Below, one piece after another: positions 24,520 through 56,925 of a DNA stretch of 64,000 nucleotides (positions within the stretch are counted from its first letter, which is position 1; each line of letters starts with the position of its first letter). A model generated the notes under the pieces. The model did no database searches and was not told the origin of the DNA. It was given only the letters and a program-made list of their open reading frames with translations. The stretch is from Escherichia coli 042. Lineage in GTDB: Bacteria; Pseudomonadota; Gammaproteobacteria; Enterobacterales; Enterobacteriaceae. Made by a program: the position numbers and the translations under genes. The stretch lies in assembly GCF_000027125.1 (NCBI RefSeq), contig NC_017626.1; one strand, 5' to 3'.

Positions 24520-24837
24520 AGTTAGCTCCAATTTCCGTAAGGCAAAAAAAAAGAAAGGTAACTTCCCCCGCGAGAGGGAAGTTACCTTTCTCATTATCTC
24601 TGGTAACTGGAGATAATTTTTATCATAAGGGCATAATCGCTAATGTGATCGTAATCACAGTGTTATATTCGAATTGTCAAATAATTTTAAAAAGCAGAAG
24701 CGTGATTACTCTCACACAACACCACTGCTTTCCATGTTATTTCTTATTGCAATTACTAGAGACCTGAGAAAAGTAATCCACCTGAAAGGGCGGCTTACTT
24801 TTCTCTTTTTTTTGTCTATTACAAATGGGAATACGAT

Positions 24838-50096: not shown

Positions 50097-50141
50097 AAAG
50101 CAACCTCAATAAGAAAAACTGCCGCGAAGGATAGCAGGAAT

Positions 50142-50498
50142 AAAAAAAGGGAGCACTGTATTCACAGTGCTCCCGGTTCGTTTCGCAGCATTCCAGCTAC
50201 TTTTGTTGCTCCCTGCTCATCCTTGACAACTTTTCCTCTGGCCTTGCGGCCAATCGTTCATCCTGAACTATTGCTTCCTGCTCACACCACCCCGATGTGA
50301 TACTTCATCCTGAAGTGTCCCTGGCCTTCCTGGCCCACCGAATCATCCTGACCGGTTCTCATTCTCCATCCTGGAGGTGTCCTTTAACGCGTCCTGCGTC
50401 ATCCTCTTCGCTTCATCCAGAAGCCTTTCCCTGAAACACCATCCTGGTGTGTCCTTCAGAAGTGTCATCATCCTGATGTTCACTTCGTTGTCTGACTC
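50142..50498 (-). ncRNA. csrB: CsrB regulatory sRNA (CsrA-sequestering)
   Basis: About 357 nt with many CAGGATG / AGGA motifs (seen as CATCCTG on the + strand); 5' end GAGTCAGACAACGAAGTGAACATCAGGATG; 3' terminator GGGAGCACTG...CAGTGCTCCC plus U-tract. Track ORFs 50085..50300 and 50377..50565 lie inside it and are not coding. Confidence 0.95.
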
Positions 50499-50680
50499 CC
50501 TGTCGACGAAGATAGAATCGTCTTTTTCGCGAAGTCTTACAAGGCGCTTACAGACAATGCCTTAAGGAAAATTTCATATGAAAGTTAAGGATTAACAAGC
50601 AATATATTGATTTTAAATGAAAATAACGATTCTTATCTTTTTAAGTATTCGCTTATTTCCTGGCGATCTCCTACAGAGTC

Positions 50681-50698
50681 TGTAAGAGATCTCTCACA
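50681..50698. promoter_or_regulatory. 18-bp palindrome TGTAAGAGATCTCTCACA upstream of csrB (UvrY/SirA-type box)
   Basis: Near-perfect inverted repeat about 185 bp upstream of the csrB 5' end; matches the UvrY-type recognition sequence as I recall it. Confidence 0.7.
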
Positions 50699-50717
50699 AC
50701 CAGATGGGGTATTTGGA

Positions 50718-51330: not shown

Positions 51331-52179
51331 ATGTCTTCTTATGCAAACCATCAGGCACTTGCGGGCCTGACTCTTGGAAAATCAACCGATTACCGGGATA
51401 CCTATGACGCCAGCCTACTGCAAGGCGTTCCGCGTAGTCTGAATCGCGATCCGCTGGGTCTGAAAGCGGATAACCTGCCTTTTCACGGTACGGATATCTG
51501 GACGCTATATGAACTTTCCTGGCTGAATGCGAAAGGTTTGCCGCAGGTCGCCGTCGGTCATGTTGAACTTGATTACACCAGCGCAAATCTGATTGAGTCG
51601 AAGAGTTTTAAGCTCTATCTCAACAGTTTTAACCAGACGCGTTTTAATAACTGGGATGAGGTGCGCCAGACGCTGGAGCGCGACTTAAGCACTTGCGCTC
51701 AGGGTAAGGTTAGCGTGGCGTTATATCGTCTTGATGAACTGGAAGGCCAACCGATAGGTCATTTCAATGGCACTTGCATTGATGACCAGGATATCGCTAT
51801 CGATAACTATGAATTCACCACTGACTATCTTGAGAATGCCACCAGCGGCGAGAAAGTAGTGGAAGAAACACTCGTTAGCCACCTGCTGAAATCAAACTGC
51901 CTGATTACTCATCAGCCAGACTGGGGATCTATCCAAATTCAGTATCGTGGACGCAAGATTGACAGGGAAAAACTGCTGCGTTATCTGGTTTCTTTCCGTC
52001 ATCATAACGAGTTCCATGAACAGTGCGTAGAACGCATTTTTAATGACCTGTTACGCTTCTGCCAGCCAGAGAAATTGAGCGTTTACGCACGTTATACCCG
52101 TCGTGGCGGTCTGGACATTAACCCGTGGCGCAGTAATAGCGATTTTGTCCCATCGACCACAAGACTGGTTCGGCAATAA
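51331..52179 (+). CDS. queF: NADPH-dependent 7-cyano-7-deazaguanine reductase
   Basis: 282 aa; two-domain YqcD-type QueF with Cys in ...[17 protein letters not shown]. Confidence 0.93.
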
Positions 52180-52290
52180 ATTTTTTCTCAATTTTGCGTG
52201 CTGGATTCACGCAGAAGGTTGTGAAAGGTCATCAGGCAGGGCTATTGTAATCAAAGGGAATGACGATATTCGTCCCATAAGGAGTTTTTC

Positions 52291-53655
52291 TTGATTACAC
52301 ATATTAGCCCGCTTGGCTCCATGGATATGTTGTCGCAGCTGGAAGTGGATATGCTTAAACGCACCGCCAGCAGCGACCTCTATCAACTGTTTCGCAACTG
52401 TTCACTTGCCGTACTGAACTCCGGTAGTTTGACCGATAACAGCAAAGAATTGCTGTCTCGTTTTGAAAATTTCGATATTAACGTCCTGCGCCGTGAACGC
52501 GGCGTAAAGCTGGAACTGATTAATCCCCCGGAAGAGGCTTTTGTCGATGGGCGAATTATTCGCGCTTTGCAGGCCAACTTGTTCGCGGTTCTGCGTGACA
52601 TTCTCTTCGTTTACGGGCAAATCCATAACACCGTTCGTTTTCCCAACCTGAATCTCGACAACTCCGTCCACATCACTAACCTGGTCTTTTCCATCTTGCG
52701 TAACGCTCGCGCACTGCATGTCGGTGAAGCGCCAAATATGGTGGTCTGCTGGGGCGGGCACTCAATTAACGAAAACGAGTATTTGTATGCCCGTCGCGTC
52801 GGGAATCAGCTGGGCCTGCGTGAGCTGAATATCTGCACCGGCTGTGGTCCGGGAGCGATGGAAGCGCCAATGAAAGGTGCTGCGGTCGGACACGCACAGC
52901 AGCGTTACAAAGACAGTCGTTTTATTGGTATGACAGAGCCATCGATTATCGCCGCTGAACCGCCTAACCCGCTGGTCAACGAATTGATCATCATGCCGGA
53001 TATCGAAAAACGTCTGGAAGCGTTTGTCCGTATCGCTCACGGTATCATTATCTTCCCTGGCGGTGTGGGTACGGCAGAAGAGTTGCTGTATTTGCTGGGA
53101 ATTTTAATGAACCCGGCCAACAAAGATCAGGTTTTACCATTGATCCTCACCGGCCCAAAAGAGAGCGCCGACTACTTCCGCGTACTGGACGAGTTTGTCG
53201 TGCATACGTTGGGTGAAAACGCGCGCCGCCATTACCGCATCATCATTGATGACGCCGCTGAAGTCGCTCGTCAGATGAAAAAATCGATGCCGCTGGTGAA
53301 AGAAAATCGCCGCGACACAGGCGATGCCTACAGCTTTAACTGGTCAATGCGCATTGCGCCAGATTTGCAAATGCCGTTTGAGCCGTCTCACGAGAACATG
53401 GCTAATCTGAAGCTTTACCCGGATCAACCTGTTGAAGTGCTGGCTGCCGATCTGCGCCGTGCGTTCTCCGGTATTGTGGCGGGTAACGTAAAAGAAGTCG
53501 GTATTCGCGCCATTGAAGAGTTTGGTCCTTACAAAATCAACGGCGATAAAGAGATTATGCGTCGTATGGACGACCTGCTACAGGGTTTTGTTGCCCAGCA
53601 TCGTATGAAGTTGCCAGGCTCAGCCTACATCCCTTGCTACGAAATCTGCACGTAA
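52291..53655 (+). CDS. ppnN: nucleotide 5'-monophosphate nucleosidase (LOG-family, YgdH-type)
   Basis: 454 aa; LOG-family motif [10 protein letters not shown]. Confidence 0.9.
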
Positions 53656-54210
53656 TCCCCCTCCCCCGGTGACGTTTGTTGCCGGGTTTTCTCGTTTTTG
53701 GTCACATACCCATCAATTTATTTCATTTGTTATATGAATGTTTCTTACCACCCTCACGCGATAAATATCATTACAGTTAATATGTCATACAATTTATGTT
53801 GTAACGCAAACGTTTCCCTATTTTCATAAACCACATTTTATCGCTATGAAAAAGAAATTATCGCCATGATTAACTAAAAGTATTGATTTTTTCAGTTCAA
53901 CCTACATATATTGCGCGCCCCGGAAGAAGTCAGATGTCGTTTAATGGGCAAATATTGCCCTTAAATTCTCTTTTACTTTTGATTTACAGAGTAAAGCGTT
54001 GGGATAATCTATCTTCCAAGTAGATTATTGTATTTGGGATCAAGATCACTGATAGATACATAACTTGTGTGTATCTTTCCGCCCTCAAATTATTACGGCG
54101 GTAAATGATTAAGCCATCGCCGATAGACAGATTTCATTTTTACGGTCAGGCACCTTCCCGGGCTGAACTGGCTAAAAGCTGAATTATTTGCATTCCTCCA
54201 GGAGAAATAG

Positions 54211-55500
54211 ATGGAAACGACTCAAACCAGCACGATTGCGTCGAAAGACTCTCGTAGTGCCTGGCGCAAGACAGACACCATGTGGATGCTGGGCCTTTAC
54301 GGCACGGCAATCGGCGCGGGCGTGCTGTTCCTGCCAATCAACGCCGGTGTTGGCGGTATGATCCCGCTGATCATCATGGCTATCCTTGCGTTCCCGATGA
54401 CATTTTTTGCTCACCGCGGTCTGACTCGCTTCGTACTGTCTGGTAAAAACCCGGGCGAAGACATCACCGAGGTTGTAGAAGAACACTTTGGTATTGGCGC
54501 AGGTAAACTGATTACCCTGCTCTACTTCTTCGCTATCTACCCGATCCTGCTGGTTTATAGCGTGGCAATCACCAATACAGTTGAAAGCTTCATGTCTCAC
54601 CAGCTGGGTATGACGCCACCGCCGCGTGCGATTCTGTCGCTGATCCTGATCGTGGGTATGATGACCATCGTTCGCTTTGGTGAGCAGATGATCGTTAAAG
54701 CGATGAGTATTCTGGTATTCCCGTTTGTTGGCGTACTGATGCTGCTGGCTCTGTACCTGATCCCGCAGTGGAACGGCGCAGCACTGGAAACGCTGTCTCT
54801 GGACACTGCATCGGCAACCGGAAACGGTCTGTGGATGACCCTGTGGCTGGCAATTCCGGTAATGGTGTTCTCGTTCAACCACTCTCCGATCATCTCTTCT
54901 TTCGCCGTTGCGAAGCGTGAAGAGTACGGCGATATGGCAGAACAGAAATGCTCGAAGATCCTGGCATTCGCACACATCATGATGGTGCTGACCGTAATGT
55001 TCTTCGTATTCAGCTGCGTACTGAGCCTGACTCCGGCAGACCTGGCTGCGGCTAAAGAGCAGAACATCTCGATTCTGTCTTACCTGGCTAACCACTTTAA
55101 CGCACCGGTTATCGCGTGGATGGCTCCGATTATCGCGATTATCGCAATCACCAAATCCTTCCTCGGCCACTACCTGGGCGCACGTGAAGGCTTCAACGGT
55201 ATGGTGATTAAATCTCTGCGTGGTAAAGGTAAGTCTATCGAAATCAACAAGCTGAACCGTATCACTGCGCTGTTCATGCTGGTAACGACCTGGATTGTTG
55301 CCACCCTGAACCCGAGCATCCTGGGTATGATTGAAACCCTGGGCGGCCCAATCATCGCGATGATCCTGTTCCTGATGCCGATGTACGCAATTCAGAAAGT
55401 ACCGGCAATGCGTAAGTACAGCGGTCACATCAGCAACGTATTCGTTGTCGTGATGGGTCTGATTGCAATCTCCGCAATCTTCTACTCTCTGTTCAGCTAA
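54211..55500 (+). CDS. sdaC: serine:H+ symporter
   Basis: 429 aa, [42 protein letters not shown]... Confidence 0.95.
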
Positions 55501-55557
55501 GTCCTTTCGCGCCGCTTTCGGGCGGCGCTTCCTCCGTTTTAACGCGATGTATTTCCT

Positions 55558-56925
55558 ATGATTAGCGTATTCGATATTTTCAAAATCGGCATTGGCCCTT
55601 CCAGTTCTCATACCGTTGGACCAATGAAAGCGGGTAAACAATTTACCGACGATCTGATTGCCCGTAATCTGCTTAAAGACGTGACCCGCGTGGTGGTTGA
55701 CGTGTACGGCTCGCTCTCTCTGACCGGTAAAGGCCACCACACTGATATCGCCATTATTATGGGCCTGGCGGGTAACCTGCCGGATACCGTGGATATCGAT
55801 TCCATCCCTGGTTTTATTCAGGATGTGAATACTCATGGTCGCCTGATGCTGGCAAATGGTCAGCATGAAGTGGAGTTCCCGGTTGATCAGTGCATGAACT
55901 TCCATGCCGACAACCTTTCTCTGCATGAAAACGGTATGCGCATTACCGCACTGGCGGGCGATAAAATCGTTTACAGCCAGACTTACTACTCTATCGGCGG
56001 TGGCTTTATCGTTGATGAAGAACATTTTGGCCAGCAGGATAGCGCACCGGTTGAAGTTCCTTATCCGTACAGTTCAGCAGCCGATCTGCAAAAACATTGT
56101 CAGGAAACCGGGCTGTCACTCTCTGGCCTGATGATGAAAAACGAGCTGGCGCTGCACAGCAAAGAAGAGCTGGAACAGCACCTGGCGAACGTCTGGGAAG
56201 TCATGCGTGGCGGTATTGAGCGCGGTATTTCCACCGAAGGCGTGTTGCCTGGCAAACTGCGCGTTCCACGCCGTGCTGCGGCACTACGCCGGATGCTGGT
56301 CAGCCAGGATAAAACCACCACTGACCCGATGGCGGTTGTTGACTGGATCAACATGTTTGCACTGGCAGTGAACGAGGAGAACGCTGCTGGCGGTCGCGTG
56401 GTGACTGCGCCGACTAACGGTGCGTGCGGGATTATCCCGGCTGTGCTGGCGTACTACGATAAGTTTATCCGCGAAGTGAACGCTAACTCACTGGCTCGTT
56501 ACCTGCTGGTAGCCAGCGCCATTGGTTCTCTTTATAAGATGAACGCGTCGATTTCTGGTGCCGAAGTGGGTTGCCAGGGTGAAGTTGGCGTGGCGTGCTC
56601 AATGGCGGCGGCTGGTCTGGCAGAACTGTTAGGCGCAAGCCCGGCGCAGGTGTGCATCGCGGCGGAAATAGCCATGGAGCATAACCTCGGTCTGACGTGT
56701 GACCCGGTTGCTGGACAGGTGCAGGTACCGTGCATCGAGCGTAACGCCATTGCGGCAGTAAAAGCGGTGAACGCCGCGCGTATGGCGCTGCGCCGTACCA
56801 GCGAGCCGCGCGTCTGCCTCGATAAAGTTATCGAGACCATGTACGAAACAGGTAAAGATATGAACGCCAAGTACCGCGAAACCTCTCGCGGCGGCCTGGC
56901 AATGAAGATCGTTGCCTGCGATTAA
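55558..56925 (+). CDS. sdaB: L-serine dehydratase 2
   Basis: 455 aa, MISVFDIFKIGIGPSSSHTVGPMKAG... Confidence 0.95.
   Translation: MISVFDIFKIGIGPSSSHTVGPMKAGKQFTDDLIARNLLKDVTRVVVDVYGSLSLTGKGHHTDIAIIMGLAGNLPDTVDIDSIPGFIQDVNTHGRLMLANGQHEVEFPVDQCMNFHADNLSLHENGMRITALAGDKIVYSQTYYSIGGGFIVDEEHFGQQDSAPVEVPYPYSSAADLQKHCQETGLSLSGLMMKNELALHSKEELEQHLANVWEVMRGGIERGISTEGVLPGKLRVPRRAAALRRMLVSQDKTTTDPMAVVDWINMFALAVNEENAAGGRVVTAPTNGACGIIPAVLAYYDKFIREVNANSLARYLLVASAIGSLYKMNASISGAEVGCQGEVGVACSMAAAGLAELLGASPAQVCIAAEIAMEHNLGLTCDPVAGQVQVPCIERNAIAAVKAVNAARMALRRTSEPRVCLDKVIETMYETGKDMNAKYRETSRGGLAMKIVACD

Follow-up and report, generated by a model that had tools for sequence, protein, structure and literature searches.

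Evidence for a probable composite control region with tandem promoters between ppnN and sdaC in Escherichia coli 042

Expression of sdaCB bears on serine use, on survival at glucose depletion and on the entry of colicin V, and the region upstream of sdaC serves as a model for the interplay of CRP and sigma factors and for the discovery of orphan regulators. Control of sdaC by CRP has been reported, along with lost expression in cya strains. When a cya strain is subjected to experimental evolution, insertions upstream of sdaC arise repeatedly, and the up-mutants express sdaC without cAMP (reporter data) and grow on serine; the authors of that study regard the promoter termed P1 below as 'the' sdaC promoter. 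According to a paper of 2024, sdaC has no verified promoter; the 'annotated TSS' that it cites is a computational prediction. In the literature consulted, no experimental transcription start for sdaC was found.

The closest described systems are the class II CRP promoters galP1, melR and CC(-41.5), the tnaCAB operon and the Hfq-dependent repression of STM3216 by the small RNA ArcZ at the ribosome binding site (RBS). The class II promoters resemble the sdaC region in having a near-consensus CRP core, in lacking a recognizable -35 element and in carrying an upstream A+T-rich stretch. As in sdaCB, tnaCAB is an amino-acid catabolic operon that pairs a transporter with a degradative enzyme, depends on CRP, and has a long leader with short open reading frames (ORFs). 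Unlike TnaC, the short ORFs of sdaC are unconserved; the leader yielded no sign of Rho-dependent or intrinsic termination, and nothing indicates that its translation senses an amino acid. The K-12 literature treats P1 as the promoter of sdaC, and the present analysis adds a predicted class II promoter, P2. The region itself is ordinary, already known and largely published, so that beyond this promoter and several side observations the analysis has little significance other than tidy annotation and holds nothing surprising for specialists.

The window, a stretch of 64,000 nt of E. coli 042 (contig NC_017626.1), contains the same locus as the K-12 literature, with the published sites unchanged or nearly so. 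The stop codon of ppnN (ygdH) ends at 53655 and the ATG of sdaC, the gene downstream, is at 54211, leaving a spacer of 555 bp (53656-54210). Its K-12 equivalent is 556 bp, without an annotated feature in RefSeq, and K-12 coordinates correspond one-to-one with the window after a 1-nt indel close to the ppnN terminator. The segment 53600-54260 is a 100% match to E. coli strain Ecol_316; at a threshold of 95% identity, all but one of 5,426 complete E. coli genomes (5,425) carry it. For comparison, sdaC loci were taken from 80 Enterobacteriaceae species, and conservation was counted over 77; the ppnN-sdaC synteny is near-universal in the fetched species, with spacers of 436-648 bp.

Base composition sets the region apart, with a GC content of 31-37% over 53700-54150 (about 37.5% for the whole spacer) versus approximately 50-55% in the neighboring genes. 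With both strands considered, the longest spacer ORF has 46 aa and a TTG start, while composition-matched shuffles give a longest ORF of 53 ± 16 aa and 63% of them equal or exceed the real spacer, so the scarcity of ORFs is at the chance level for AT-rich DNA and is uninformative. A crude ORF map gives 47 gaps in the window, with a median of 67 bp, and ranks the spacer in the top seven by length; the spacer is long, though not unique. A 613-aa minus-strand ORF at 54184-56025, antisense to sdaC, took the place of sdaC in this crude map. As a typical shadow ORF across from a real gene, it is the kind of feature that misleads naive ORF-based gene maps. Close to the ppnN stop codon is the following feature.

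53665-53700, plus strand: intrinsic terminator of ppnN, with its stem at 53665-53686 and a U-rich tail (terminator scan, folding and published Term-seq).

The 9 bp stem has 6 G-C pairs and is followed by UUUUCUCGUUUUU; the fold has a dG of -14.9 kcal/mol (z -2.3), and is the sole terminator-like site detected by the scan in 53400-54400. Published Term-seq data place the primary ygdH 3' end at K-12 2927709, about 53691 in the window and four to five bases into the U tract, and the next 3' end is at sdaC +121, with none between them (2927709 to 2928350). The G+C-rich stem-loop with its U tract is thereby matched by an in vivo 3' end, and ppnN transcription stops at this point. A preliminary description of the sequence had noted about 550 bp of AT-rich DNA lacking a convincing ORF between ppnN and sdaC, and had read a hairpin and U-tract just after ppnN as a terminator, all of which agree with these results.

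Taken as a whole, the spacer is probably a composite region that controls sdaCB at both the transcriptional and the post-transcriptional level, with P1 and P2 in tandem, and with neither a small RNA gene nor a functional leader peptide. An upstream module of two YieP sites and a PurR operator would feed a weak P1, and a downstream module, the anciently conserved core, would form P2. From sequence and spacing, we infer the existence and start of P2, the start of P1, and the division of labor between the two promoters. The upstream module comprises these features:

53725-53739, no strand assigned: YieP site 1, ATTTGTTATATGAAT, the sequence given in PMC8282354, unchanged in the window.

53780-53794, no strand assigned: YieP site 2, ATATGTCATACAATT, under a published IPOD-HR and ChIP-exo peak (PMC8282354).

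53804-53819, no strand assigned: PurR operator, ACGCAAACGTTTCCCT, matching ACGCAAACGTTTGCGT at 14 of 16 positions (conservation and published ChIP-chip).

53883-53912, plus strand: promoter P1, with -35 TTGATT, an 18-bp spacer and -10 TATATT (promoter scan and up-mutations).

Both YieP sites were defined in an IPOD-HR study, where an occupancy peak specific to rich medium was detected in the spacer and YieP was pulled down; they are backed by gel shift, ChIP-exo and reporter data, and either deletion of yieP or scrambling of both sites lowered reporter activity (PMC8282354). Site 1 is poorly conserved beyond E. coli. The PurR-like box was found through its conservation, and occurs in most genera about 405 bp 5' of the sdaC ATG with 12-14 of 16 matches. 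In the window, it lies approximately 108 bp upstream of the predicted P1 start, an unusual placement for a repressor. The identical site had been reported for sdaC-sdaB from ChIP-chip data, printed as the reverse complement AGGGAAACGTTTGCGT, with log2 enrichments of 2.08 in the presence of adenine and 0.83 in its absence (Cho et al. 2011). This 16-bp palindrome, with its 14 matches, is therefore occupied in vivo, and its occupancy is enhanced by purines.

The 'orphan' rich-medium IPOD-HR peak that was given to YieP (53780-53819) sits 9 bp from this documented PurR operator, and the lysate for the YieP pulldown had been passed beforehand over a purR-promoter probe, possibly depleting PurR. Because of this proximity, the restriction of PurR binding to conditions with added purines and the earlier passage of the lysate, the peak may be partly PurR, a point that could be useful to workers on the region. 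A direct repeat, TTATCGC(T/C)ATGA, is present at 53838-53849 and 53858-53869, phased by 20 bp and about 55 and 75 bp upstream of the predicted P1 start. It was considered as a tandem protein-binding site and rejected, as the second copy is unconserved even in other Escherichia. Four clones from the ppnN-sdaC spacer were recovered by SELEX with Dan/YgiP, and an Lrp site at sdaC appears as a citation in other papers.

Support for P1 comes from the cya suppressors. One of the published insertions, +ATT at K-12 2927928, falls at 53910 of the window, within the -10 TATATT. The -10 is followed by a GC-rich discriminator, GCGCGCC, which together with the 18-bp spacer makes for a weak promoter, and transcription would start at about 53917-53922. 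P1 would then be a CRP-independent sigma-70 promoter fed by the YieP/PurR module, with a leader of about 290 nt. Its hexamers are recognizable in Escherichia and Salmonella and poor in other genera.

The promoter-distal half of the spacer aligns poorly across species, and the best-conserved block, 54018-54110, is mostly 90-99% identical with few variable positions. It contains the following:

54022-54034, no strand assigned: A+T-rich stretch, GATTATTGTATTT, directly 5' of CRP site 1.

54035-54050, no strand assigned: CRP site 1, TGGGATCAAGATCACT, centered at 54042.5 (ETEC H10407 ChIP-seq and conservation).

54050-54065, no strand assigned: second predicted CRP site, TGATAGATACATAACT, weak, under the same ChIP-seq peak.

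54072-54084, plus strand: predicted promoter P2, with the -10-like TATCTT at 54072-54077 and a predicted start at about 54084 (from the CRP-to-TATCTT spacing).

ChIP-seq in ETEC H10407 gave a CRP peak at sdaC with two site calls, and these are the reverse complements of 54035-54050 (in its K-12 variant) and 54050-54065; the locus thus holds a CRP-like site that is bound in vivo, as at a class II promoter. Site 1 has two mismatches to TGTGA-N6-TCACA, and reads TGGGA in the window versus TGAGA in K-12. A match to the CRP motif is not by itself above chance (30 seen in the window versus 25.6 expected). The core GATCnnGATCAC is invariant in the 77 species, with the variable bases at positions that CRP does not read. 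The second site is less conserved than site 1, and would fall in the P2 spacer. Most positions of GATTATTGTATTT are 80-99% identical over the 77 species, two being at about 10-20%, and the stretch is a possible alpha-CTD/UP-like contact for P2. Elsewhere in the window, a perfect CRP consensus, TGTGATCGTAATCACA, occurs at 24644-24659 with a one-mismatch site 57 bp away (24701-24716), and the former agrees with the ygcW/yqcE CRP site in the ETEC ChIP-seq table.

Counted from the first base of the CRP 16-mer, the hexamer TATCTT (TACATT in five species and TATCGT in three) stands at an offset of exactly 37 bp in each of the 77 species, and no other -10-like hexamer keeps its position in 100% of them. 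It has four of six matches to TATAAT, and a -35 is not recognizable. If TATCTT is the -10 and occupies -12 to -7, the start would be at 54084, on C residues, the CRP center would be at -41.5, and the leader would be 127 nt. The CRP center is 29.5 bp upstream of the first -10-like base, as in class II CRP promoters, and this geometry, with the invariant position of TATCTT, points to a second, ancestral promoter of that class. It differs from galP1, melR and CC(-41.5) in that its start is a predicted one, in having TATCTT as the -10, in the weak second CRP-like site within its spacer, and in the upstream CRP-independent promoter that reads across the CRP site. P2 would be the reason why sdaC depends on cAMP. 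In a way that could likewise help workers on the region, it would also explain why cAMP-independent suppressors fall in the upstream -10, since a class II promoter would be dead in a cya strain and selection would improve the -10 of the other promoter, P1.

The conserved block also has the capacity to fold, as RNA, around one inverted repeat.

54079-54101, plus strand: inverted repeat CCGCC-N13-GGCGG, a possible hairpin in P1-derived RNA (per-species folding).

The register of its 3' arm moves between lineages, so this segment was folded sequence by sequence and not by fixed alignment columns; 48 of 55 distinct orthologous sequences reach a dG of -3 kcal/mol or lower, most with a comparable hairpin (mean z -1.67). 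The 5' arm overlaps the predicted P2 start. A further hairpin is found upstream of the RBS, about 20-70 nt 5' of sdaC (equivalent to 54145-54190 of the window), at loci L010, L013, L021, L029 and others, with clear compensatory pairs in many genera (GUCAGG/CCUGAC, AUCAGG/CCUGAU, GUCGGG/CCCGAC and GCCAGU/ACUGGC). Klebsiella, Raoultella, Yokenella and Trabulsiella have lost it by deletion, and it is not evident in Kluyvera and weak in E. coli (z +0.7). These recurrent leader hairpins, strongest in Salmonella and Enterobacter, are suggestive only, and may affect mRNA stability or the access of ArcZ and Hfq. The conservation-based structure prediction that the preliminary description had proposed as a check gave three trivial pairs and no consensus (RNAalifold, 54100-54222, on the 3' side of the conserved block), and the fold of the E. 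coli leader is not stronger than that of shuffled sequences (z -1.36).

Such folding bears on a simpler account, in which P1 is the only promoter, its leader is about 290 nt, and the 54018-54110 block acts as RNA structure, as a CRP roadblock or as an architectural site. P1 alone has genetic support, the YieP and PurR sites are upstream of it, and the inverted repeats of the block are prone to fold in many species. We nevertheless regard this account as unlikely. CRP activates sdaC, yet relative to P1 the CRP sites would be at +122 and +138, a non-activating position. Outside Escherichia and Salmonella the -35 and -10 of P1 are poorly kept, in contrast to the fixed distance from the CRP site to TATCTT, and variation within the block falls exactly at unconstrained CRP positions, which fits protein-DNA geometry; the RNAalifold and z-score results cited above argue in the same direction. 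An RNA-level role in P1 transcripts could still contribute to the conservation of the block, because the hairpin tendencies exist. A fuller version of the tandem arrangement can be put forward only tentatively: P2 would be the ancestral class II promoter and P1 a lineage-restricted addition, whose transcript of about 290 nt crosses bound CRP and carries extra hairpins that are possibly cis-regulatory for stability or translation.

The spacer length had also led the preliminary description to suggest a complex promoter, an unannotated small RNA or a leader peptide. Its interpretation was right as regards the terminator and the promoter architecture, the latter being mostly published (YieP, PurR, CRP, Lrp, ArcZ and the up-mutations), and no support was found for the small RNA or the leader peptide. 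Two short ORFs are relevant to the leader peptide:

53934-54023, plus strand: uORF1, 29 codons, MSFNGQILPLNSLLLLIYRVKRWDNLSSK, judged non-functional as a peptide.

54105-54182, plus strand: uORF2, 25 codons, MIKPSPIDRFHFYGQAPSRAELAKS, judged non-functional as a peptide.

Attenuation or ribosome stalling of sdaCB by one of these ORFs, in the manner of leuL or tnaC, is suggested by their position 3' of a candidate promoter and on the strand of the mRNA, by the four consecutive Leu codons of uORF1 and the GGAAGAAG stretch ahead of its ATG, and by the intactness of uORF2 in four Escherichia genomes. Conservation speaks against it and led to the rejection of uORF1 as a leucine-rich leader. The start triplet of uORF1 is ATG in 25 of 77 species and the ORF itself was seen only in Escherichia, one genome of which interrupts it with an in-frame stop at the third codon; its substitutions fall on all codon positions with no third-position bias. 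For uORF2, seven of the 77 species have ATG at the start and 62 have ATT or ATC. Neither start is conserved beyond Escherichia. No family match was found for either ORF in NCBIfam, and an exact-sequence protein collection held one 'hypothetical protein' record for uORF1 and none for uORF2. Downstream of the ORFs there is no terminator, alternative hairpin or 3' end within the leader.

Most other genera (loci L006-L082) have a conserved motif, ATGnTAGCCTTCGCGCC, at the equivalent of 53944-53960, within the segment 53941-53965, and in Escherichia about 15 nt of it are replaced by the palindrome GGGCAAATATTGCCC, with the flanks retained. The motif reads as a 10-codon ORF, MVAFAPVNSL, in 32 species and resembled a leader peptide because its start alternates between ATG and GTG (56 of 57). 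This candidate was rejected, as variability does not peak at third positions and the fraction of synonymous changes (0.28) is that expected at random (0.27); judging by its substitution pattern, ATGnTAGCCTTCGCGCC behaves as a non-coding nucleic-acid element. With such results, regulation by a leader peptide appears very improbable.

The idea that one strand or the other of the spacer holds a separate small RNA gene, so far unannotated, is less credible still and can be almost wholly discounted; it is favored only by how long the spacer is and by AT-rich sequences in it that resemble promoters. An Rfam scan of 52000-56000 at E <= 10 gave three chance-level hits only and no match in the spacer, the one terminator-like site belongs to ppnN, and neither a Term-seq 3' end of its own (2927709 to 2928350) nor a conserved consensus structure was found. 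K-12 RefSeq is blank here, though csrB is annotated nearby. From K-12 synteny (yqcC, csrB, syd, queF, ppnN), the CsrB small RNA gene is expected at about 50100-50700 of the window.

In the composite control region favored here, regulation continues after transcription, at the RBS.

54198-54209, plus strand: ArcZ pairing site, CCAGGAGAAAUA, at -13 to -2 relative to sdaC (literature and RNAduplex).

ArcZ is reported to repress sdaC by pairing at -13 to -2, and its overexpression lowers sdaC mRNA. The site covers the Shine-Dalgarno AGGAG (54200-54204), and RNAduplex pairs the K-12 ArcZ 5' seed AUUUCCCUGG with 54198-54209, so seed complementarity at the RBS agrees with the published interval. ArcZ, with Hfq, pairs there and represses translation. 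The processed ArcZ seed masks the sdaC Shine-Dalgarno as in other cases of Hfq-dependent RBS repression, such as that of STM3216 by ArcZ, and no difference from them was seen. Further downstream, the 'internal' Term-seq 3' end at sdaC +121 (about 54332; K-12 2928350) has no obvious terminator, and could mark a site of processing or the early termination of transcripts that carry the leader.
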